Counted from the first letter of the stretch, positions 1,103 through 23,180 are shown. The stretch: DNA of 30,084 bases from a virus (IMGVR_UViG_2908572912_000002); one strand, 5' to 3'. The notes: generated by a model not told the origin, from the sequence alone. Made by a program: numbers and translations.

Positions 1103-1855
1103 TCAGATTCCCTGGTGAGTAAGAATTTTACTTTCTGAACTCCTCTGAGAGTATTGACTTGGAGAAACACCAAAATAACGTCTAAATACATAAGTAAAGT
1201 ATGAGACACTGGCATAACCACAGACCTTAGCTACTTTACTAATAGGATAACAACGAGTGCTGAGTAAATATTCAGCCATTTGCATCCTCTCATCAAGTAT
1301 GATCTTACTGAATGATACCCCCTCTTCTTTCAATTTCATCTTTAGTAAACTTTCGCTGAGATATAATCTTGATGATATATCCTTAAGACGCCATGGTGCA
1401 GATAAATCCGTATGAATAATCGTTTTAACTTTAGCCCCTGTGCTTTTCAAACATCCAAACAGAAATACTCCAAATTGTTTTTCAGAAGAAAATGCAGAGA
1501 GACATGTAAAAGCAATAGACTCATCAAAAATTTCTATGTATTCAGCACAGTGATTAGCCCAACTAATTAATCCTTTAATTAAACTGAAGTCAGCAAAGTT
1601 TATTTTTAAATAAGATGGATATTCCCTACAATCAGAAATATCCCTTAAGTTATTAGCTTTCAAATAGCGACTAATAAACTCAGCGCCAAAATCCGCCACT
1701 ATCACTCTTTCAGGATATGTCAGGAAAAAATCTCTAGAGCTAGAGTCGACAAGTACAGATGAACCTCTCTCCAGAAACACACTCTCTTTTCCGAAATAAA
1801 CATCAAAGGACTCCAAAATCAATATAACTGAACATGTAGTTGCCATATCATCCAC
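1103..1855 (-). CDS. AraC-family transcriptional regulator, AppY-like (paralog of 10804-11544)
   Basis: 250-aa ORF; C-terminal AraC HTH (ISSRLYLSESLLKMKLKEEGVSFSKIIL...VAKVCGYASVSYFTYVFRRYFGVSPSQY); low-GC coding sequence. Confidence 0.8.
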   Translation of the reverse strand: MDDMATTCSVILILESFDVYFGKESVFLERGSSVLVDSSSRDFFLTYPERVIVADFGAEFISRYLKANNLRDISDCREYPSYLKINFADFSLIKGLISWANHCAEYIEIFDESIAFTCLSAFSSEKQFGVFLFGCLKSTGAKVKTIIHTDLSAPWRLKDISSRLYLSESLLKMKLKEEGVSFSKIILDERMQMAEYLLSTRCYPISKVAKVCGYASVSYFTYVFRRYFGVSPSQYSQRSSESKILTHQGI

Positions 1856-2067: not shown

Positions 2068-2571
2068 TTATTGATAGTGTTTTATGTTCAGATAATGCCC
2101 GATGACTTTGTCATGCAGCTCCACCGATTTTGAGAACGACAGCGACTTCCGTCCCAGCCGTGCCAGGTGCTGCCTCAGATTCAGGTTATGCTGCTCAATT
2201 CGCTGCGTATATCGCTTGCTGATTACGTGCAGCTTTCCCTTCAGGCGGGATTCATACAGCGGCCAGCCATCCGTCATCCATATCACCACGTCAAAGGGTG
2301 ACAGCAGGCTCATAAGATGCCCCAGCGTCGCCATAGTGCGTTCACCGAATACGTGCGCAACAACCGTCTTCCGGAGCCTGTCATACGCGTAAAACAGCCA
2401 GCGCTGGCGCGATTTAGCCCCGACATAGCCCCACTGTTCGTCCATTTCCGCGCAGACGATGACGTCACTGCCCGGCTGTATGCGCGAGGTTACCGACTGC
2501 GGCCTGAGTTTTTTAAGTGACGTAAAATCGTGTTGAGGCCAACGCCCATAATGCGGGCAGTTGCCCGGCAT
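2068..2571 (-). CDS. insB: IS1 InsB (transposase frame, normally expressed as InsAB' by -1 frameshift)
   Basis: 167-aa ORF overlapping insA 3' end in -1 frame; ...[31 protein letters not shown]... Confidence 0.9.
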
Positions 2572-3749: not shown

Positions 3750-6700
3750 TCAATGTTCGCTTCCTGTTAACTGCCCGACAAGTGCAACCAGTTCGCTTAC
3801 CTGATTTTCCAGAGTGCTGATCCGGGTGCCTGCTGTTGCCAGATTTTTACGTAGCGTTATGTTTTCCTCTTCCAGCGCGGTAACGCGACCATCTGTTTCA
3901 CGGGCGACCTGAACAAGTAACCCCGTCACGGCGGCGTAGTCAACATTCAGATAACGTGTTTCTTCACGTAATTCATTGCCGTCAACCGTTGGTCCCTGCA
4001 ACTCTTCACCGTAATGAGTAAACGATCCCACAGCTTCTGGTATCGCCTCCATTACTTCCTGTGCAATAACGCCAGCATAAGGCATCCCGTTTTCCCTGAG
4101 CGTGTAGGTGTATCCGTTCATTTTACGGATTGCTTTCGTCGCGTCGCTGATAACGAGAATATCGTCTTTAAGGTCGCGGTCTGATGACTGATTCAGCGTT
4201 GTGCAATTAATAGCGCCATTTACATCAAACAACTGGCCTGCTGACGTTTTTTGCGCATAAAACAGATACGCAGCAGACGTTCCAACCTCAAAAACGTTTT
4301 GTCGATCACTTGATCCCCATACTTTTGCGGCAAATGATAGTTCTGTATTACCTAAGTTCTGTAAAACAAAACGATTTCCAGTCCCTGTTTGTTTTGTAAG
4401 AGTTAAATCAACAGTTGAGTTAACCTCATCCTTGTTGATAGTGAGCGCCTGCGCTTTAGCCCCGTTAACAGCACCTGTTTTGAGTTGAACCGCGCCGTCA
4501 TTACCATTTAACAGTATCTCAGCTCCGCTAAAGAAATTTTTTAGCGACAGCATCTTACTTACGCCGACTGATGAACCCAACGCCCACGCGAGAGAATTAC
4601 CGGTGCTATCAAACCCACGTACAAAGCAATCCATTTTGCTATAGTCTGACGTGCTTCCAAGGACATCAATTCGCCCTCCGCCAGATTTTACCGGGTTAGA
4701 TGTGGTTAATGACCTGACAGCAAGATCGGTAGATGAATTGAGATCGTCTACTGTTAGTAATTTCTTCCATTCCTGCGTCGTTCCATTTTCAATTGTTCTT
4801 CCCCAAAAACCGGAATTGCGGCCTCCGAACTGCACAGCATAATTTTTACTAAATTGAACATGAATGCCGCCAAGAACCATAGAACCTGCCGGGCCGTTTG
4901 TACTGCCTGCAATTGGTATAAATTTATTAATGTTATCAGTATGCTGCGTGTTCCAGTCTCGTCCTGTTTTTGTAAGCAGTCCTAATGTCGTGTCGAGCGC
5001 TTCGGTTAAAGTAAGGTTTTTAAATTTAACTGCGCTACTTTCGCCAAGACTTAAGTTGTTTCGCGCATCTTCTACTGTTGTCGCACCTGTACCTCCTTGC
5101 CCAACAGCTAATGGCAACCAGCCAGTGCCATTATGACAACCCCACAAACCAGATTTGGAAACCTGTAAGCGTGGTGCGCCTGAAGAATACGTAGAATATA
5201 CGTAAGTTGTTTCTTTTCCCTCTTCAACCCTTTCTGTTGATACATCTCTCTTCCATTCAGACCAGGTACCGCTTCCTCCTTCATATATTCGTCTATAAGT
5301 AATTCCCGGATTATTATAAGGGTAGTACACCTGAACGCAGGAAGAAGCAGTGTTGGCTCTCGTTTGGAGCACTATTAAAGCGCCCGCCAGACCGATTGGG
5401 TAATTTAATTCTTCTGTTGCGTAAGCGCTCGTTGGTTGTTGATAGAAACCAGAATATTCACCGGTAAGGGTGTTTAGGTCAGTATTAGCAAGGCCAGCTT
5501 TTTGCTCATACATTACCCGCAAGTTCGCACGTGCTTGCTCGATAGTTCTTCCACCAGTACCGCCCTGGGCTAAACCTAACGGAGACCATTGTCCAGAAGA
5601 AGAATCATAAACCCCCCAACTCCCGTTAGTATGGATTTCAAAGAAACGATCACCAGTTGGACCATACATACGAGTTGTTGATTCATTTTGACCAAAGCGG
5701 CTTAATTCATCTCTGCGGGTATGACGTATCCATTGCGGGCCAGAACTTTGGCTGTAAATGTACGAATACAATGATTTTGTATCTGAACCAACAAATAGAC
5801 CGGAATATCTTTTTGTTGACACTTCTGATCTAACTATATAACCAGAAATAAGATTATCACCGGCACTAGACGCTACTGATGGATAACCTTTCGCTGAGAT
5901 GTAAATCCTGACAAATCCAATATAACCTGATGGCTCAACAGAGATATCAGTGCAGGTCATGGCAACTTCACCAAGACCGATATTATCGCCAACAATTACT
6001 TGCGCCTGGTTGCGATAATTAAGTGCGTCCGCCGCAGATTTCGCCGCGTTTGTTTCACTGGATTTAGCATTAGTTTCGCTGGCTTTAGCGTTGGTTTCGC
6101 TGCTCTTTGCTGCTGCCTCGCTATTTTTCGCGTTGGTTTCTGATTTTTTGGCTGCTGTCGCGGAGTTTGCTGATGCAGTTTGTGAGTCTGCTGCCGCCTG
6201 TGCGCTGTTATCTGCATTCGTCTCAGACGTTTTTGCGGCCTTCGCGGAATTTCCTGCCGCCGTTGCCGAGGAAGCTGCACTACTGGCACTTGATGATGCG
6301 TTCGTTTCTGATGATTTCGCTGCCTCTTTTGAGGCCGACGCATCCCGGGCTGAGGTGGCAGCTTCTGACGCTTTCGTGGTCGCGGTGGATGCAGAAGTGG
6401 CTGCTGATTGTTGTGACGCTGCCGCATTCGTTTCTGACGTTTTCGCCGCACCGGCACTGGTAGCCGCCGCGCTTTTTGAGGACTCTGCAGCGGCAGCACT
6501 TTTTGAGGCTTCAGTGGCCTTTGTTGATGCCGTTCCTGCGCTGGAAGACGCTGACTGAGCCGACGAAGCGGCCTGTCCGGCTGACGTGCTGGCTGCACGT
6601 GCTGAATCTGCAGCATCAGTCGCATGGGTTGCCGCCTCACGGGCTGATGTGCTGGCATCGCTGGCTGATTTCTTCGCGGCTGCCGTGTTCTGTGCCACCG

Positions 6701-7061
6701 CGGACGCGTTACGCGCCACCTCTTCCACCATCAGTTCAAAACGGCGCAGAGCCTCCGGACGGGCATCATCCTCCGTCATGGCACCGAGAAAATCATTCAG
6801 CGTACCGGGTCGGGAATCTTCATACACGGTGATGGTCCCGGCATGTGACGGCGGGAATCCTTCCACCAACAGAATAACGCTGTACTGACCGTACTCAACG
6901 TCCATGCTGTAACGCCCGGCTTCATCCGGATTTTCTGAGGCCAGCGTGTTCACCACCACCGTGGTGCTGTTACGTTTTGCTTTCAGCTGGATTGTGCAGT
7001 TCTGTACCGGTTTTCCTGTGCCGTCTTTCAGTACACCTGAAATCTTTACTGCCATATTCAC
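3750..7061 (-). CDS. stf: side tail fiber protein (Stf), chimeric: lambda-like N-terminal anchor, Ala/Ser/Thr-rich repetitive stalk, divergent distal domain with possible C-terminal intramolecular chaperone-like segment
   Basis: 1103-aa ORF; N-terminus MAVKISGVLKDGTGKPVQNCTIQLKA... as in lambda Stf; long SETNA-type repeats; C-terminal ...NGYTYTLRENG...ALEEENITLRKNL... Confidence 0.85.
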   Translation of the reverse strand: MNMAVKISGVLKDGTGKPVQNCTIQLKAKRNSTTVVVNTLASENPDEAGRYSMDVEYGQYSVILLVEGFPPSHAGTITVYEDSRPGTLNDFLGAMTEDDARPEALRRFELMVEEVARNASAVAQNTAAAKKSASDASTSAREAATHATDAADSARAASTSAGQAASSAQSASSSAGTASTKATEASKSAAAAESSKSAAATSAGAAKTSETNAAASQQSAATSASTATTKASEAATSARDASASKEAAKSSETNASSSASSAASSATAAGNSAKAAKTSETNADNSAQAAADSQTASANSATAAKKSETNAKNSEAAAKSSETNAKASETNAKSSETNAAKSAADALNYRNQAQVIVGDNIGLGEVAMTCTDISVEPSGYIGFVRIYISAKGYPSVASSAGDNLISGYIVRSEVSTKRYSGLFVGSDTKSLYSYIYSQSSGPQWIRHTRRDELSRFGQNESTTRMYGPTGDRFFEIHTNGSWGVYDSSSGQWSPLGLAQGGTGGRTIEQARANLRVMYEQKAGLANTDLNTLTGEYSGFYQQPTSAYATEELNYPIGLAGALIVLQTRANTASSCVQVYYPYNNPGITYRRIYEGGSGTWSEWKRDVSTERVEEGKETTYVYSTYSSGAPRLQVSKSGLWGCHNGTGWLPLAVGQGGTGATTVEDARNNLSLGESSAVKFKNLTLTEALDTTLGLLTKTGRDWNTQHTDNINKFIPIAGSTNGPAGSMVLGGIHVQFSKNYAVQFGGRNSGFWGRTIENGTTQEWKKLLTVDDLNSSTDLAVRSLTTSNPVKSGGGRIDVLGSTSDYSKMDCFVRGFDSTGNSLAWALGSSVGVSKMLSLKNFFSGAEILLNGNDGAVQLKTGAVNGAKAQALTINKDEVNSTVDLTLTKQTGTGNRFVLQNLGNTELSFAAKVWGSSDRQNVFEVGTSAAYLFYAQKTSAGQLFDVNGAINCTTLNQSSDRDLKDDILVISDATKAIRKMNGYTYTLRENGMPYAGVIAQEVMEAIPEAVGSFTHYGEELQGPTVDGNELREETRYLNVDYAAVTGLLVQVARETDGRVTALEEENITLRKNLATAGTRISTLENQVSELVALVGQLTGSEH
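6000..6700. repeat. Degenerate tandem repeats encoding the Ala/Ser/Thr-rich (KSSETNA-like) stalk of Stf
   Basis: Reiterated gcgttggtttc/gctg motifs; many spurious overlapping ORFs in all frames in the six-frame track. Confidence 0.7.
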
Positions 7062-7119: not shown

Positions 7120-7659
7120 TCAGAATTTATAACCGACACCCACGATGAAACTGTTGGTACGCCAGTCACCGCTGCCGGAGCCTTCATAAGCGACGTCAAC
7201 GGCCACGGATTCGGTCGGGTTAAACTGCACGCCAGCTCCCCACGCCAGAGACGTGTTGCTGTGGCGACCGTCATCACTTCCGGTCAGCACATCGTGCGTT
7301 TTCCCCTTGTTGTCAGTTACGCGGATATAATCCCCGGAGAAAGTCGAAACACGGCTGTAAGCCATACCCGCCATCGCATACGCGCTGAACCATTCATTCA
7401 CGCGCACAGACGGCCCCGCCATCACGCTGAACCAGCGATTACGCACGGAATCCTCATGCCAGCGGGTATCGCTGTAATGCGTTTTTTGCTCATCTTCAGC
7501 GTTGGCATAACTGAATGACGTAATCAGCCCCAGCGTGTCCGTAAACTCATAACGGTATTTCACGTTAATCCCGTTCAGATTATCGCTGCCGGAAGCGTTC
7601 GTACGGGCATGAAGATACCCTGCGCTCAGCGTGGCCTGCTGCTCAGACGCCGCAGTTCT
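7120..7659 (-). pseudogene. lom: lom-like outer membrane protein (Ail/Lom/PagC family), 5'-truncated (no start codon or intact signal peptide)
   Basis: Frame open upstream of the listed GTG (7563) to 7659: ...ASEQQATLSAGYLHARTNASGSDNLNGINVKYRYEFTDTLG...WRTNSFIVGVGYKF; C-terminal beta-barrel motifs as in lambda Lom. Confidence 0.75.
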
Positions 7660-8522: not shown

Positions 8523-8948
8523 ATGGAAGGTACTACAATGGCTCAGGTTGCCATTTTTAAACAAATATTCGATAAAGTGCGAAATAATTTAAACTATCAC
8601 TGGTTTTATTCTGAACTAAAACGTCACAATGTCTCACATTACATTTACTATTTAGCTACAGAGAATATTCATCTTGTTCTTGAAAACGATAATACGGTTT
8701 TAATAAAAGGACAGGGTAAGGTTGTAAATGTAAGATTTTCAAAAAATAAATGCCTTATAGAAGCCACCTTAAAAGGATTCAAATCAGGAGAGTTATCATT
8801 TTACGAATACAGGAAAAATCTTGCTACAGCAGGGGTTTTCAGATGGATTACAAATATCCACGAAAACAAAAGGTATTACTATACCTTTGATAATTCATTA
8901 CTCTTTACTGAGAACATTCAGAACACTACACAAATATTTCCGCACTAA
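8523..8948 (+). CDS. DUF1398-family protein (YdfO/YbcV-like prophage protein)
   Basis: 141-aa ORF; [42 protein letters not shown]...[24 protein letters not shown] resembles E. coli YdfO/YbcV as recalled; true start may be the internal Met (MAQVAIF). Confidence 0.7.
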
Positions 8949-9439: not shown

Positions 9440-9907
9440 TCATCGAAGGCATTGCGTCCTGATGTATTCCTGAAGCGTTCTCAGTGCTGTTTGGTCGCGG
9501 ATAATTCCGTCCCGGATACCGAGAACGTTTCGTCCAGCAACTGGAGAGAGTTCGACGGTGGCATCATTGCCCATGCCGGAGGCGCTGGAGGTTTCGGCTG
9601 AGGATGGCACAGGGCATTTTCCTTTGACGAGCACCCGACCACCATTATCAAGCTTGCGCCGAAGAGCATCATTTTCAGCTTTCGCATCAGCTAACTCCTT
9701 CGTGTATTTATCATCGAGTGCATCAGCATCACGCTGGCGCTGCTGCATGTCAGTAATGGTGGCGTTCGCCTTCTCCAGTTCACTGGCCTTGTTATCGCGC
9801 TGTTCTTTGTAGGCGATTGCATTATCACGGTAATGATTAACAGCCCATGACAGGCAGACGATGATGCAGATAACCAGAGCGGAGATAATCGCGGTTACCC
9901 TGCTCAT
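9440..9907 (-). CDS. Rz: i-spanin Rz (RzpD-like), N-terminal TM anchor, coiled-coil periplasmic domain
   Basis: ORF 9440-9919; likely start [26 protein letters not shown]... overlapping endolysin stop; downstream of endolysin. Confidence 0.8.
9481..9687 (-). CDS. Rz1: o-spanin Rz1 (lipoprotein, Pro-rich) embedded in the +1 frame of Rz
   Basis: 68-aa ORF within Rz on same strand; lipobox MVVGCSS; proline-rich [16 protein letters not shown]. Confidence 0.75.
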
Positions 9908-10401
9908 TGTTGCCCCCACAAACAGACCTCACGCTCAATCTCACGACGAGTCATCAGGCCTTTCCATTGCTTACCGCCAGCGTATGCCCAGCGACGTAGC
10001 TGGTCACATGCGCCCTTGATATCGCCCTGGTTTATTTTGCGAAGAAGAGTAGATGTTCTGAAATTGCCTGCGCCCACGTTATAGACGAACGAGTAAAGAG
10101 CGCCGCGCGTTGTTTCCGGTATATCGACTTTGATGTACGGGTTAATTTGTCTGGCTACCGTGGCAAGGTCTTTATTCAGGAGGGCTTTGCATTCTGCTTC
10201 GGTATACGTTTTACCGGGAATGATGTCTTTTCCTGTATGCCCGTGACATACAGTCCATACGCCAACGATATCTTTGTATGGTATGTAGCTGACACCTTCC
10301 AGACCATCGTTACCACTTGGGCCAGTGATTAACACTGATGCTATAGCAATTGCTCCGCCACCAATAGCAGCAGCAACGGCTTTTCGTAATGATGGAGGCA
10401 T
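9904..10401 (-). CDS. R: SAR endolysin (T4-lysozyme-like glycoside hydrolase family 24; RrrD/R21-like)
   Basis: 165-aa ORF; N-terminal Gly/Ala-rich SAR segment [20 protein letters not shown]; ...[21 protein letters not shown]...[20 protein letters not shown]... resembles E. coli RrrD. Confidence 0.9.
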
Positions 10402-10616
10402 TATTCACCTCTCGCAGCCTTGCGCTTATCTTCTTTAATCTTGAAATAAAGGTTTGTCAGGTACGTCAGCAGGCCAAATACCAAGCTACCCAGCACACCT
10501 ATTGCTGCCCACTGTGAGGGCGTGACTTTATCGAGCAGCTGTAAAAACCAGTAGCCAGCACTGCCTGCGGAGGTGCCGTAGGCAATGCCCGTTGTTAACT
10601 TATCCATGGATTTCAT
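10401..10616 (-). CDS. S: pinholin (S21/EssD-like) with dual-start motif (Met1-Lys-Ser-Met4)
   Basis: 71-aa [74 protein letters not shown]; two TMDs; immediately upstream of endolysin. Confidence 0.9.
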
Positions 10617-10803
10617 AGCCTCACCTCCGCAAATAACGGATGGTGTACACGGTTCGGAACGAAGAGGAAAGGTATAGAAGTTACATTAGCGTAAGGCTTG
10701 AACATCTATTCAAAAAGAAAAACGCCGCGATTATTCTGGCGTAGCTGAAAGCATCATACAATTATCAAATACGAAAATTACAAAATCATTAAAACGCATC
10801 ACG

Positions 10804-11544
10804 TTACATCATGTCTTTTTCTAAAAAAAATCTTGATGAATATTGATGGGGAGGAACACCAAAATACCTTCTGAAAACACTTACAAAATATGACGTGTTT
10901 TCATAACCGCATATCTCAGCAACTTTTCCAACAGAATATAAATTGTAGCTTAATAACCTTTCCGCCATCACCATTCGCTCTTCAAGAATTAACTTACTAA
11001 ATGATAAGCCTTCGTGCTTTAATTTTCTTTTTAACAGACTTTCACTCAGATACAGTCTTGAAGATATATCACAAAGTCTCCATGCTGCAGATATATCCGT
11101 GTGAATAATAGCCTTAACTTTACTTCCTAAACTATTAAGACATCCAAATAAAAAACTTTGCACTATTTTCTCTGAAGATAAGATAGCAAGACATGCAAGT
11201 GATATTTGATTTCTAACAAAATCCACAGTTCTGCCATCACAATTCAAGCATGCAATCAAGTTCTTTAACAATGAAAAATCTTCACATTCCACCATCAAGT
11301 ATGCCGGATAAAACCTTCTTACAGAAAAAGGTGAGAGTGTGTTGCTTTTAAAGAAATCATTAACTGTTTTTTCTTCAACATCTACGATCATTACATGATC
11401 TATATTTGATGAAAAAAAATCTTTTAAATTGTAATCAATGAGAACAGCACTTCCTTTTTTAAACAAAATATCTTCTTTACCAATTCGGACATCAAACGAG
11501 TTCAACACCAAAATGATAGAACATATGTATAGCATATTATCCAC
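10804..11544 (-). CDS. AraC-family transcriptional regulator, AppY-like (paralog of 1103-1855)
   Basis: 246-aa ORF; C-terminal HTH ISSRLYLSESLLKRKLKHEGLSFSKLIL...VGKVAEICGYENTSYFVSVFRRYFGVPPHQY; low-GC; AT-rich upstream region. Confidence 0.8.
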   Translation of the reverse strand: MDNMLYICSIILVLNSFDVRIGKEDILFKKGSAVLIDYNLKDFFSSNIDHVMIVDVEEKTVNDFFKSNTLSPFSVRRFYPAYLMVECEDFSLLKNLIACLNCDGRTVDFVRNQISLACLAILSSEKIVQSFLFGCLNSLGSKVKAIIHTDISAAWRLCDISSRLYLSESLLKRKLKHEGLSFSKLILEERMVMAERLLSYNLYSVGKVAEICGYENTSYFVSVFRRYFGVPPHQYSSRFFLEKDMM

Positions 11545-11886
11545 CTGATATCATTGGGGTTACACCAGGTAAGTATAGGTGGAAAATCAATATTCGCCAG
11601 TTCAACAATAAGGAAAATTTCATTGCATCACAAGTATAAAATTATGTATTTAACTCACAAAGACAAATTATTAAACCAATCTGTTATATTATATATAGCT
11701 GCGTGGAATCATAATATTATATATTTTGACTGGCATGTTTACTAACTTTAAGTTGCATCTCAATTGTTTCTTCAGCGTAAACAGACTTTTTATACAAACT
11801 GACACTCTGGGTATCATAGTGTAGTTTTTACGATTGTAAATATCCTGCATGCAGGAACTCATCCTTTTGGATGATATCGCATACAA

Positions 11887-12846
11887 TTAATTTACCATCA
11901 GTCTTAGAGCCAGTTCGTCCGGATAGGGATCGAAGTAATTCTGTGTAAGCAAGTAATCATTAGGATACTCACCCAGATAATGCTTCAGCAGAGTCAACGG
12001 CGCAAGAAGAGGTAATGTGCCAGAACGATAGTTAAGTATAACCTCGCTCAACTCTTTACGCTGGCGTGTACTTAAGTAGTTACTAAAATACCCCTGTATA
12101 TGCATCAGCACATTCGTGTGATTTTTACGTGATGCAGGTTTTCTGAGAATCGCCATCAGCTTATCACGATACACCTCAAAGTATGATTCAAGGTCCGCCC
12201 ACTCGTGTATTGCAGCCACAAATGGTCCCATATCTTTATAGCCTGCCTGACTATGCGCCAACAACTGAAGCTTATAACGACTATGAAAAGCTAATAACTC
12301 TCTTCTTGATAATTTCTCCTTGTAAAGGTGATTGAGCTCATGCAAAGCAAAAACTCTTTCAACAAAATTCTCACGAAGCACTGGATCATGTAATCGCCCA
12401 TCCTCTTCAACCGGTAGCCAGGAAAACTTTTCCATCAAAGTGCTCGTAAATAGTCCCACTCCATCTTTACGACCTCGATTACCATTTTCATCATAGACAC
12501 GCACGCGCTCCATGCCACAGCTGGGAGATTTAGCACAAACCACAAACCCCGATACATCCTTTAATTTGTCCATATAAGAACGACTAAACTCTGTCATTCT
12601 CTCTGTCACATCCTCATTCTGGTCGTGGCTGAAACACATCCGTATATTTCCTTGCGTCGAGCGCACAAGACGTAGAGCAGGACGCGGAACTGGCAGCCCT
12701 ATAGCCATTTCCGGACATACTGGTCTGAATGTTACCCATTCCACTAATTTGTCCATTAAAAAGTCAGCTCTTTTGTGACCACCATCAAAACGAACAGCAG
12801 AACCGGCCAAACAACCGCTGATTCCAATCACAGGTTTTTTTATCAT
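11887..12846 (-). CDS. two-domain DUF523 (TudS-like, putative 4Fe-4S thiouracil desulfidase fold) plus DUF1722 (YbgA-like) protein
   Basis: 319-aa ORF; N-terminal VIGISGCLAG...VRFDGG...RPVCPEMAIGLPVPRP...CAKSPSCGMERV (Cys pattern of DUF523); C-terminal YbgA-like helical region. Confidence 0.65.
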   Translation of the reverse strand: MIKKPVIGISGCLAGSAVRFDGGHKRADFLMDKLVEWVTFRPVCPEMAIGLPVPRPALRLVRSTQGNIRMCFSHDQNEDVTERMTEFSRSYMDKLKDVSGFVVCAKSPSCGMERVRVYDENGNRGRKDGVGLFTSTLMEKFSWLPVEEDGRLHDPVLRENFVERVFALHELNHLYKEKLSRRELLAFHSRYKLQLLAHSQAGYKDMGPFVAAIHEWADLESYFEVYRDKLMAILRKPASRKNHTNVLMHIQGYFSNYLSTRQRKELSEVILNYRSGTLPLLAPLTLLKHYLGEYPNDYLLTQNYFDPYPDELALRLMVN

Positions 12847-13038
12847 ATTCTCCCCCTTGACTAATTCATTAACACATAAACTGTGTAGTGCACGGAATAA
12901 ATTGCCTTTCTGGCGTCATCACTGACAATTTTTCTGTTATGGACTATTCCTAATATAGTATGAAAGTTCTTTAAGTGATCGGTCGTAATCATCTATCTTT
13001 CATACTTACTCTCAACTATCAAAAGTACAGGATTTATT

Positions 13039-13563
13039 ATGAAGTTATGGCCTGTGTTGACTGGCATTGCACTCTCTTTCACTCTTATAGCATGTAAGGC
13101 CCCGACACCACCTAAAGGTGTGCAGCCGATTACAAATTTTGACGCCAACCGCTACCTCGGAAAATGGTATGAAATAGCTCGCCTCGAGAACCGGTTCGAA
13201 CGTGGTCTGGAACAGGTCAGCGCTACTTATGGAAAACGGAACGACGGAGGGATTCGTGTACTTAACCGTGGATACGATCCAACGAAAAATAAATGGAGCG
13301 AGAGCGAAGGTAAAGCATACTTTACTGGAGATACTAAAACTGCAGCATTGAAGGTTTCGTTTTTTGGCCCCTTCTATGGTGGCTATAATGTAATCAAACT
13401 GGATGATGAGTATAAGTATGCTCTTGTCAGTGGTCCGAACAGAGAATACCTATGGATTCTGGCAAGGACCCCAACTATTCCAGATAAAGTAAAAGCAGAC
13501 TATGTGCGAACCGCTCAAAAGTTGGGATTCAATGTCAATGAATTATTATGGGTTAAACAATAA
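13039..13563 (+). CDS. outer-membrane lipocalin lipoprotein (Blc-like)
   Basis: 174-aa ORF; lipobox LIAC; NFDANRYLGKWYEIARLENRFERGLE...GKAYFTG...ALKVSFFGPFYGGYNVI...YLWILARTP closely resembles E. coli Blc. Confidence 0.85.
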   Translation: MKLWPVLTGIALSFTLIACKAPTPPKGVQPITNFDANRYLGKWYEIARLENRFERGLEQVSATYGKRNDGGIRVLNRGYDPTKNKWSESEGKAYFTGDTKTAALKVSFFGPFYGGYNVIKLDDEYKYALVSGPNREYLWILARTPTIPDKVKADYVRTAQKLGFNVNELLWVKQ

Positions 13564-13591
13564 AATCCCTACCCGAAATAATACTTATTAG

Positions 13592-13618
13592 AAAAAAACC
13601 AGCCTTTGGGGAGGCTGG
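13592..13618 (-). terminator. Rho-independent terminator downstream of Q (candidate tR' of the late transcript)
   Basis: Minus-strand hairpin ccagcc-tccccaaa-ggctgg followed by TTTTTTT; ~100 nt after the Q stop. Confidence 0.55.
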
Positions 13619-13718
13619 CTAAATCAGGAAACAAGCTGTTATATGATAATAACTACGTTGCGATTCCAACATTTAAAATGTTAGACTAATGACAATCAGA
13701 CAGCAACTTTTCCTTTAA

Positions 13719-14111
13719 TTATTTCGAACAATCAGCATCCATCTCCAATCGGAGATCCAACACCATCAGCATACCCTCCACTACGCCCTCAGCTTTCTGA
13801 AGCATCCTGCCAACCCAACAATCAGATCGCCCATGCTTACGTGCAAGCGCCATAAAAGTCATGCCGCCGACATAATAGTCCACCAATAAATCATGCAAAT
13901 CGCTGTTGTTCTTTTTCAGACGGGCCATGCACCCGCAAATGATCATCGCGTCATCGTCACAACATTGTGGGCGAGATTTTACTTTTGAAGGAATTAATCC
14001 CTTAAAACCGGCGGCAATGGACGACCAGGTCACATCTTCATGATTATTAGCCGCCCACGCTCCCCAACGCTCAAGAACCATCTGAATATCACGCATCAAC
14101 TTACTCCACAA
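13719..14111 (-). CDS. Q: late-gene antiterminator Q (phage 82/21/DLP12 QuuD type)
   Basis: ORF 130 aa; from internal Met: [62 protein letters not shown]... resembles QuuD; sits between rusA and lysis genes. Confidence 0.85.
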
Positions 14112-14318
14112 AACTCAGACCAGAACGCCAATTACAAGCAAAAATCAACAAAACAGTATTAGTTGATTGTTATCTCTGACTTCATACTCCTGCTCCTGTC
14201 AGTGTTTTGGCGTAATTCTTCAGTATTCGGTAATCGGTCAAAACAGAACCGGGGAAACGATATAAGCGCAGACGCCCCCAGCGGTGGCGAAGAAGTTCTG
14301 CCATATTAAACTCAAACA

Positions 14319-16622: not shown

Positions 16623-17117
16623 TCATTTCCAATTGCAAGACTGTGAAATTTTTTCCACAACCTTATCAATCTCAGACAAGTCAAACTCAACTACTTGCAT
16701 AGTTGATCCATAAGGTTCAAACCCAAAAATAGCTTTTTTATGCTTAGCCAAGGTCTTTATAAATTGTATTGGTTGTGGAGCAAATGCAGAATCACCGCCT
16801 TCCCCACCTCCCCAAACACTCTTGACCGGCTTTCCGCCATCTAACCGCACTGTAATTCTTGGGTTGTCCGAACCCATATAATCATTGAATGATAAATAGG
16901 CATCTGTTTTGTTATCACTACAACGCAACACCAGTGAAGTTGCACGATCAGTACCTGCTTTGTTATATGAATCTGGTGATAAATTAAGAGCCACAAAGTC
17001 AGTCTGGTCAGTCATTTTATTTATCTCAGACTTTGTTATCCACGGCCCTAACTTCTCTACACCAGCATTTGCTGTAAACGAGGCACTTATAACAAAGGCT
17101 AAAATAAATTTTCTCAT
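16623..17117 (-). CDS. hypothetical secreted/periplasmic protein with N-terminal signal peptide
   Basis: 164-aa ORF MRKFILAFVISASFTANAGV...; low-GC; lies in a foreign insert between truncated ren and ninB. Confidence 0.6.
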   Translation of the reverse strand: MRKFILAFVISASFTANAGVEKLGPWITKSEINKMTDQTDFVALNLSPDSYNKAGTDRATSLVLRCSDNKTDAYLSFNDYMGSDNPRITVRLDGGKPVKSVWGGGEGGDSAFAPQPIQFIKTLAKHKKAIFGFEPYGSTMQVVEFDLSEIDKVVEKISQSCNWK

Positions 17118-22943: not shown

Positions 22944-23015
22944 GCGCGGCGTTACCGCATACCAATAACGCTTCACTCGAGGCGTTTTTCGTTATGTATA
23001 AATAAGGAGCACACC

Positions 23016-23180
23016 ATGCAATATGCCATTGCAGGGTGGCCTGTTGCTGGCTGCCCTTCCGAATCTTTACTTGAACGAATCACCCGTAAATTACGTGACG
23101 GATGGAAACGCCTTATCGACATACTTAATCAGCCAGGAGTCCCAAAAAATGGATCAAACACTTATGGCTATCCAGACTAA
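23016..23180 (+). CDS. cIII: CIII (FtsH inhibitor protecting CII)
   Basis: Hand translation [54 protein letters not shown] (54 aa). Confidence 0.85.
   Translation: MQYAIAGWPVAGCPSESLLERITRKLRDGWKRLIDILNQPGVPKNGSNTYGYPD

Follow-up and report, generated by a model that had tools for sequence, protein, structure and literature searches.

A RudS-type tRNA 4-thiouridine desulfidase as likely lysogenic cargo between Q and the lysis genes of a lambdoid Escherichia coli prophage

The locus described here raises the question of what a gene coding for a putative desulfidase fused to a DUF1722 domain is doing between the late antiterminator and the lysis genes of a prophage. It lies in a 30,084-nt stretch of viral DNA (IMGVR_UViG_2908572912_000002), which was analysed as a whole and is referred to below as the window. 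A preliminary description had pointed to an enzyme acting on thiolated nucleobases or nucleotides, and had suggested a new role for it in modification conflicts between phage and host. Our sequence comparisons suggest that the open reading frame is likely to code for RudS, which converts 4-thiouridine at position 8 of tRNA (s4U8) to uridine, carried as cargo in the slot between Q and the holin gene S, where it would probably benefit the lysogen under UVA. The features on which this reading is based are collected in Table 1.

Table 1. Features of the rudS cassette and of its prophage surroundings, with positions counted from the first nucleotide of the window.
Feature	Position	Strand	Evidence and remarks
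holin S (essD-like, P21-type)	10401..10616	-	PF04971 E=2e-35; downstream edge of cargo slot
AraC-family regulator, AppY/YdeO type	10804..11544 (RefSeq start 11535)	-	Pfam HTH_18/HTH_AraC
rudS CDS (TudS-DUF1722 fusion, 319 aa)	11887..12846	-	ORF; Pfam; 100% identical copies annotated in E. coli chromosomes
DUF1722 domain, aa 192-309	11920..12273	-	PF08349 E=2e-40
TudS/DUF523 catalytic domain, aa 7-149	12400..12828	-	PF04463 E=3e-40
blc-rudS divergent intergenic region, 192 bp	12847..13038		alignment
Shine-Dalgarno AAGGGGGAG	12850..12858	-	direct sequence reading; strong, ends ~4 bases before rudS ATG
blc-like outer-membrane lipocalin lipoprotein gene	13039..13563	+	PF08212 E=7e-44; NCBIfam Blc 316 bits
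terminator-like hairpin and T-run	13597..13620	-	~100 nt downstream of Q; kept in phage 1H12
late antiterminator Q	13719..14111	-	PF06530 E=2.5e-51; upstream edge of cargo slot
cIII thermoregulator (lambda)	23003..23061	+	Rfam 88.5 bits; confirms lambda-type early left operon

The reading frame is a real one, with an ATG start and bounds that are exactly those listed in Table 1, and its product is indeed the fusion of DUF523 (2-thiouracil desulfurase, PF04463) and DUF1722 (PF08349) that the preliminary description had proposed, both domains scoring far over the curated Pfam cut-offs. The cysteine pattern on which that proposal relied is also present, in the motifs G11-C12-L13-A14-G15, C44-P45-E46 and S107-P108-S109-C110-G111, and Cys12, Cys44, Glu46, Arg55, Ser107, Ser109 and Cys110 are invariant in an alignment of 26-27 homologues sharing 70-77% identity. 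By homology, Cys12, Cys44 and Cys110 are the predicted ligands of a [4Fe-4S] cluster, and Glu46, Arg55, Ser107 and Ser109 the predicted catalytic residues. Sequence matches to solved structures were confined to TudS, entries 6Z92-6ZW9 (6z96/6z93/6zw9). An AlphaFold2 model of the product (pLDDT 71, pTM 0.75) has low confidence in the cluster-binding loops, and a Foldseek search of its N-terminal domain against the PDB returned significant matches to TudS only (probability 1.0, target-normalised TM 0.60-0.66); the model supports the assignment to the TudS fold, not the detailed geometry.

Two better known proteins each resemble one half of this product. TudS (DUF523; PDB 6Z92/6Z96), a thiouracil and 4-thio-UMP desulfidase, shares the fold of the N-terminal domain and the active-site residues, but it is a single domain of ~150-170 aa without DUF1722, shares ~27% identity with the window protein and brings about no decrease of tRNA s4U in vivo. 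The DUF1722 domain of E. coli K-12 YbgA (b0707, encoded upstream of the photolyase gene phr) is 49% identical to that of the window protein, but YbgA has no catalytic domain and leaves s4U unaffected (Jamontas et al., 2024). The YbgA equivalog model of NCBIfam (PRK10167) matched aa 160-315 of the rudS product only, with 190.8 bits against a cut-off of 237, and since the product carries more than DUF1722 as well, it is not YbgA. RefSeq calls it either 'YbgA family protein' or 'DUF523 and DUF1722 domain-containing protein', and the former name, given the score under the equivalog cut-off, understates it.

Fusions of TudS and DUF1722 were given the name RudS when they were characterised in 2024 (Jamontas et al., 2024, NAR 52:10543; PMC11417400). 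RudS is a [4Fe-4S] desulfidase that turns tRNA s4U8 into uridine, with thiouracil or nucleotides not being its main substrates, so the tRNA direction of the preliminary description was right and its nucleobase or nucleotide direction mostly was not. Overexpression of each of six RudS genes decreased the 4-thiouridine of E. coli tRNA 4.7- to 26-fold (Jamontas et al., 2024). The biochemical and mutational reference is RudS_KT of Pseudomonas putida (PP_0741), whose activity is abolished by mutation of its three cysteines, Glu51, Ser111, Ser113 or Arg60, and modelling together with mutagenesis of RudS has put DUF1722 on the anticodon arm of tRNA (Jamontas et al., 2024). Mapped by offset, Cys17/49/114, Glu51, Arg60 and Ser111/113 of RudS_KT correspond to Cys12/44/110, Glu46, Arg55 and Ser107/109 of the window protein, and Asn26, which contacts U45 in RudS_KT, falls on Asp21 in the window protein and in all enterobacterial homologues. 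An invariant Ser239-Arg240 pair likewise stands where RudS_KT Ser243/Arg244 would be expected, a correspondence taken from the offset and not from an alignment to RudS_KT.

Homology to TudS and RudS_KT suggests how the enzyme would work. The three cysteines would hold a [4Fe-4S] cluster whose free fourth iron takes the thiocarbonyl sulfur of a flipped-out s4U8, and Glu46, oriented by Arg55, Ser107 and Ser109, would then activate a water molecule for attack at C4. The sulfur would leave via a [4Fe-5S] intermediate to render uridine and sulfide, with DUF1722 docked on the anticodon arm as the grip on the tRNA. A lysogen would thereby gain an eraser of s4U, E. coli's own YbgA being a stand-alone DUF1722 protein.

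The closest characterised relative, RudS_vir (H3V29_gp66), comes from Escherichia phage 1H12; it was among the six enzymes tested and has the same Cys12/44/110 (Jamontas et al., 2024). It is 319 aa long, aligns without gaps to the window protein at 93% identity, with none of the 21 substitutions at a catalytic position, and shares the context Q-blc-rudS-araC-holin. Phage 1H12 was also recovered independently in our DNA search with the window; its genome is that of a complete phage, whereas the window copy of rudS sits in a defective prophage. Another isolated phage, IdasGreatGrand, carries a RudS copy with 99.7% identity to the window protein. Overexpressed in E. coli, RudS_vir lowered tRNA s4U, though for its protein level it was the least efficient of the six on tRNA despite being well expressed, and no other RudS enzyme let a uracil auxotroph grow on 4-thiouracil after so short a lag (Jamontas et al., 2024). 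Taken together, the low efficiency on tRNA and the short lag suggest that the preferred substrate of RudS_vir may differ somewhat, and they are what would favour a salvage or detoxification role, in which phage RudS acts mainly on free 4-thiouracil, 4-thio-UMP or 4-thio-UTP released by tRNA turnover. We consider such a role improbable, and a weaker rival than the lytic role discussed below, because growth on thiouracils was rescued by no RudS in the way that stand-alone TudS rescued it, while each of the six decreased tRNA s4U (Jamontas et al., 2024), and because DUF1722 is as strongly conserved as the catalytic domain, which a small-molecule enzyme would not need. Action on tRNA s4U8 is the function that we propose for the window protein.

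The window contains a lambdoid prophage adjoining ybhC (the lambda attachment site), with the integrase gene and ybhC at the right end of the window, and the gene content of the prophage includes int, xis, exo/bet/gam, the cIII thermoregulator RNA, replication protein P, rusA and Q. Lysozyme and Rz genes follow the holin gene, and Q, rudS and the lysis genes all lie on the minus strand. The same frame is seen in DLP12 of K-12, where rusA-ylcG-Q(quuD) and essD-rrrD-Rz(rzpD) bracket nmpC, in the slot where the window holds blc, rudS and an AraC-type regulator gene; nmpC/ompD is also found in this frame in many phages. The cargo of this slot, whether nmpC in DLP12 or stx in Stx phages, is typically of foreign GC content and mixed orientation. 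So is the rudS cassette (GC 32-44% vs 45% for the window), although what it codes for is an eraser of tRNA modification, a lipocalin and a regulator, and not a porin (DLP12) or a toxin (Stx phages). Its place between Q and the lysis genes, in a variable slot and with deviating composition, identifies it as lambdoid cargo (a 'moron'). A search of the window for tRNA and sRNA genes close to the cassette, such as Stx phages have, found none with ARAGORN and with Rfam only the distant cIII thermoregulator. In the nin region, an ORF at 16623..17117 (minus strand) scores 26.7 bits, just over the cut-off of 26.5, with the VasI family of type VI secretion, and RefSeq annotates a 'type VI secretion protein' at the corresponding place in a related prophage; at that position it is an odd passenger.

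The preliminary description had placed the gene in a phage late operon. The position between Q and the holin gene, on their strand, bears this out, with the qualification that the prophage is defective. Apart from a side tail fibre gene, the window has no terminase, portal, capsid or tail genes, and only ~2.4 kb separate Rz from a truncated lom gene and the side tail fibre gene. Having lost the genes for head and tail, the prophage cannot make virions. Its left part holds Rz (9440..9919), a DUF1398 gene (8523..8948), a lom gene (7120..7563) that is without the first ~52 profile positions, the side tail fibre gene (3750..7061, 1103 aa) and an IS1 transposase gene (2068..2571).

The strand and position of rudS also make a lytic role a serious rival. 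The hairpin downstream of Q is probably a terminator of the tR' type, read through by Q-modified polymerase, and if so the polymerase would, judging from position, first cross blc in antisense orientation and then rudS, the regulator gene and the lysis genes in sense orientation. Since rudS follows both Q and this terminator-like element on their strand, it should be co-transcribed with the late genes after induction, in which case blc, being antisense to the presumed Q-dependent transcript, could be shut off by induction just as rudS is turned on. In Stx phages, stx is expressed from this same position. A consensus scan for pR' and for a rudS promoter gave 12 matches where 11.6 are expected in shuffled sequence, and the DLP12 region downstream of quuD gave no useful alignment to the window for mapping pR'.

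On such a reading RudS would chiefly be made late, in dependence on Q, and would remove s4U once a prophage has been induced or a cell infected. It may then let induction by sunlight or UV proceed without the translational stall caused by s4U8-C13 cross-links, translation being kept going when the light that damages the cell also cross-links its tRNA, or it may remodel the tRNA pool for phage proteins. The carriage of the cassette by plaque-forming or induced phages fits this. Deletion of thiI, which abolishes s4U, however, mildly decreases lambda replication and growth (PMC3296357). The cassette is, moreover, fully intact in a prophage that makes no virions, and a lipocalin and an AppY-like regulator are the neighbours typical of lysogenic-conversion cargo. 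All considered, we regard a mainly lytic function as possible, though unlikely.

Lysogenic conversion is the reading that we prefer. It draws on the intact state of rudS in a defective prophage, on the slight harm that thiI deletion does to lambda and on the company of blc, which Mathieu et al. (2020) list as a moron of over half of the gut lambdas that they studied. The benefit would most likely be UVA tolerance of the lysogen: with less s4U, fewer photo-cross-links between s4U8 and C13 would form in tRNA and the growth arrest induced by UVA would be shorter. The UVA growth delay of E. coli was reduced in an experiment that used overexpressed RudS_KT and not the phage enzyme (Jamontas et al., 2024). 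Counting against a UVA benefit, E. coli in the gut sees little UVA.

The partners of rudS in the cassette differ in their affinities. The lipocalin gene is divergent from rudS and antisense to the presumed late transcription, and its product is 60% identical to K-12 Blc and 69-82% identical to Blc proteins from chromosomal loci in which blc is linked to rudS (77-82% for those of Enterobacter-type chromosomes). The regulator gene (32% GC) is separated from rudS by an AT-rich spacer of 342 bp (also 32% GC); its product has YdeO as its best NCBIfam match, under the cut-off, and is 32% identical over its full length to AppY of DLP12, which like PatE and PsrB acts on the acid-resistance regulon of the host. 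At the far end of the prophage, past the tail fibre gene and IS1, a second AraC-family gene (1103..1855, minus strand) codes for a protein 53% identical to the cassette regulator and 28% identical to AppY; the 53% identity indicates that the prophage holds two paralogous AppY/YdeO-like regulators. The promoters of the cassette presumably lie in the divergent blc-rudS intergenic region, which is conserved between the window and 1H12 and shows no conservation with the intergenic regions of Citrobacter; the one weak promoter-like match within it (13015..12988) is not above chance.

The preliminary description had also raised a phage-host conflict, in which removal of s4U would disarm or trigger a tRNA-directed defence or superinfection exclusion. 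Prophage cargo slots do often house defence or anti-defence genes. There is also circumstantial support in the finding that RudS overexpression lowers the abundance of tRNA-Tyr and tRNA-Ser about two-fold (Jamontas et al., 2024). PADLOC, on the other hand, gave no match for RudS, Blc or the AraC-like protein (E<=0.01), and for this reason a defence or anti-defence function of the cassette was dropped. Besides, the nearest relatives of the enzyme are chromosomal genes of a housekeeping kind, which many Enterobacterales have in linkage with MerR-type regulators, the neighbours of rudS are of the lysogenic-conversion type and, as noted above, loss of s4U mildly harms lambda. We know of no defence system that reads s4U8. 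A conflict role is very improbable.

The likely source of the blc-rudS pair is chromosomal. The nearest chromosomal RudS homologues share 66-77% identity with the window protein and belong to Citrobacter, Kluyvera, Enterobacter, Klebsiella, Pectobacterium, Serratia and a Salmonella serovar. RudS_ST of Salmonella LT2 (ORF319, STM1389) and the chromosomal enzymes of Citrobacter, Enterobacter and Klebsiella share the architecture, length and key residues of the window protein, RudS_ST having Cys12/44/110 at the same positions. Of 62 chromosomal loci from other Enterobacterales, 42 resemble the phage cassette in having a blc-like gene that lies upstream of rudS and is divergent from it; in 34 of these 42 a gap of ~1.5 kb separates the two genes, and in two loci, including that of C. 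sedlakii, they are directly adjacent as in the phage. At the Enterobacter cloacae locus (L029 4663..5898) the gap is filled by a gene for an MlrA-like MerR regulator, in which the MlrA-type C-terminal domains were the only further Pfam domains found, and by a transthyretin/HIUase-family gene. The phage cassette has lost these neighbours, the MerR/MlrA-type regulator among them, and has an AppY-like AraC regulator instead. The chromosomal linkage, together with the greater similarity of phage Blc to the linked copies than to E. coli Blc, suggests joint capture, and blc-rudS was most probably taken up as a pair, without the MerR regulator, from a locus of the Enterobacter/Citrobacter type. The AraC-like gene, which stands beside rudS in none of the 62 chromosomal loci and has a much lower GC content, appears to be of separate origin and not to have been captured with them.

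Capture of rudS is old, since synonymous sites are saturated between phage rudS and its chromosomal homologues and since its GC content has drifted to 43%, against 51-60% in the chromosomal genes. Such drift towards phage-like composition without decay implies a long residence in phage. Between the window and 1H12, dN/dS is 0.106 for rudS (at dS 0.29), 0.06 for blc and 0.26 for the AraC-like regulator gene. At least 154 IMG/VR contigs carry a relative; among the best 80 copies the gene is intact in every one, the 22 protein alleles leave all catalytic residues untouched, and 74 contigs keep the order Q, blc, rudS, araC-like, holin. In the phage lineage rudS is under purifying selection. These observations bear directly on the idea that rudS is a neutral passenger, caught by illegitimate recombination and carried unused. 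A slot that accepts cargo as unrelated as nmpC and stx, and a PHROGs entry of unknown function, would sit well with it, but the low dN/dS, the intact copies, the unhit catalytic residues and the drift in GC content without decay disfavour it, and we give it hardly any credence.

The distribution of rudS in E. coli is wider than the literature would lead one to expect. It is present in 1,135 of 5,426 complete E. coli genomes (~20%), in 1,063 of them with at least 80% coverage and nearly always as a single chromosomal copy, and the 3.9-kb segment from Q to holin (10300-14200 in the window) is at least 80% covered in 978. Strain HS is one natural lysogen, with a copy of 98% identity. Full-length rudS also occurs in 12 of 50,697 phage records, all lambda-like coliphages in which the gene order Q, blc, rudS, araC-like, holin recurs. 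According to both the primary paper (Jamontas et al., 2024) and a review of 2026, RudS is absent from E. coli, which is true of K-12-type strains and not of about a fifth of sequenced isolates. PHROGs lists the RudS family as of unknown function, and the matches listed in our literature search combining RudS with prophage or lysogen terms contained no mention of RudS or a desulfidase; the sole link of RudS to phage on record is the use of RudS_vir by Jamontas et al. (2024).

Several odd copies turned up along the way. BL21 (NZ_CP053601.1 1558651..1558797) has kept 147 bp from the 5' end of rudS (98% identity), annotated as a '2-thiouracil desulfurase family protein'. BL21(DE3) was the host of the published overexpression assays (Jamontas et al., 2024); the fragment is far too short for activity. 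Two contigs of a 'Candidatus Nanosynbacter sp.' MAG (L056 and L061) contain the E. coli prophage cassette with 94-100% protein identity and are almost certainly binning contamination. Two extended RudS proteins, each the single member of its cluster (P0002/P0006), probably reflect errors of assembly or gene calling: a 403-aa E. coli protein that includes GGDEF (PF00990) and a 500-aa protein that includes PF12915.

With the enzyme family, its chemistry and a phage copy all published, the finding as first stated adds little, and the new role claimed for the gene had been pre-empted by the 2024 description of RudS and the assays of the 93%-identical RudS_vir (Jamontas et al., 2024). What is left of interest is the unrecognised prevalence of rudS in about one fifth of E. 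coli, together with annotation in PHROGs and RefSeq that lags behind. It is conceivable, if doubtful, that RudS is in E. coli a variable, horizontally spread trait affecting s4U, near-UV growth delay and the stringent response, perhaps with a Q-dependent late function as well; blc-rudS would then be a stress module captured from an enterobacterium and brought under phage late control, possibly also under the AppY-like regulator. Given prophage rudS in so many genomes, UVA growth delay, s4U levels and s4U-based RNA labelling may differ between isolates and K-12. The strong purifying selection on an eraser of tRNA modification in a temperate phage, finally, makes its selective value a testable question.
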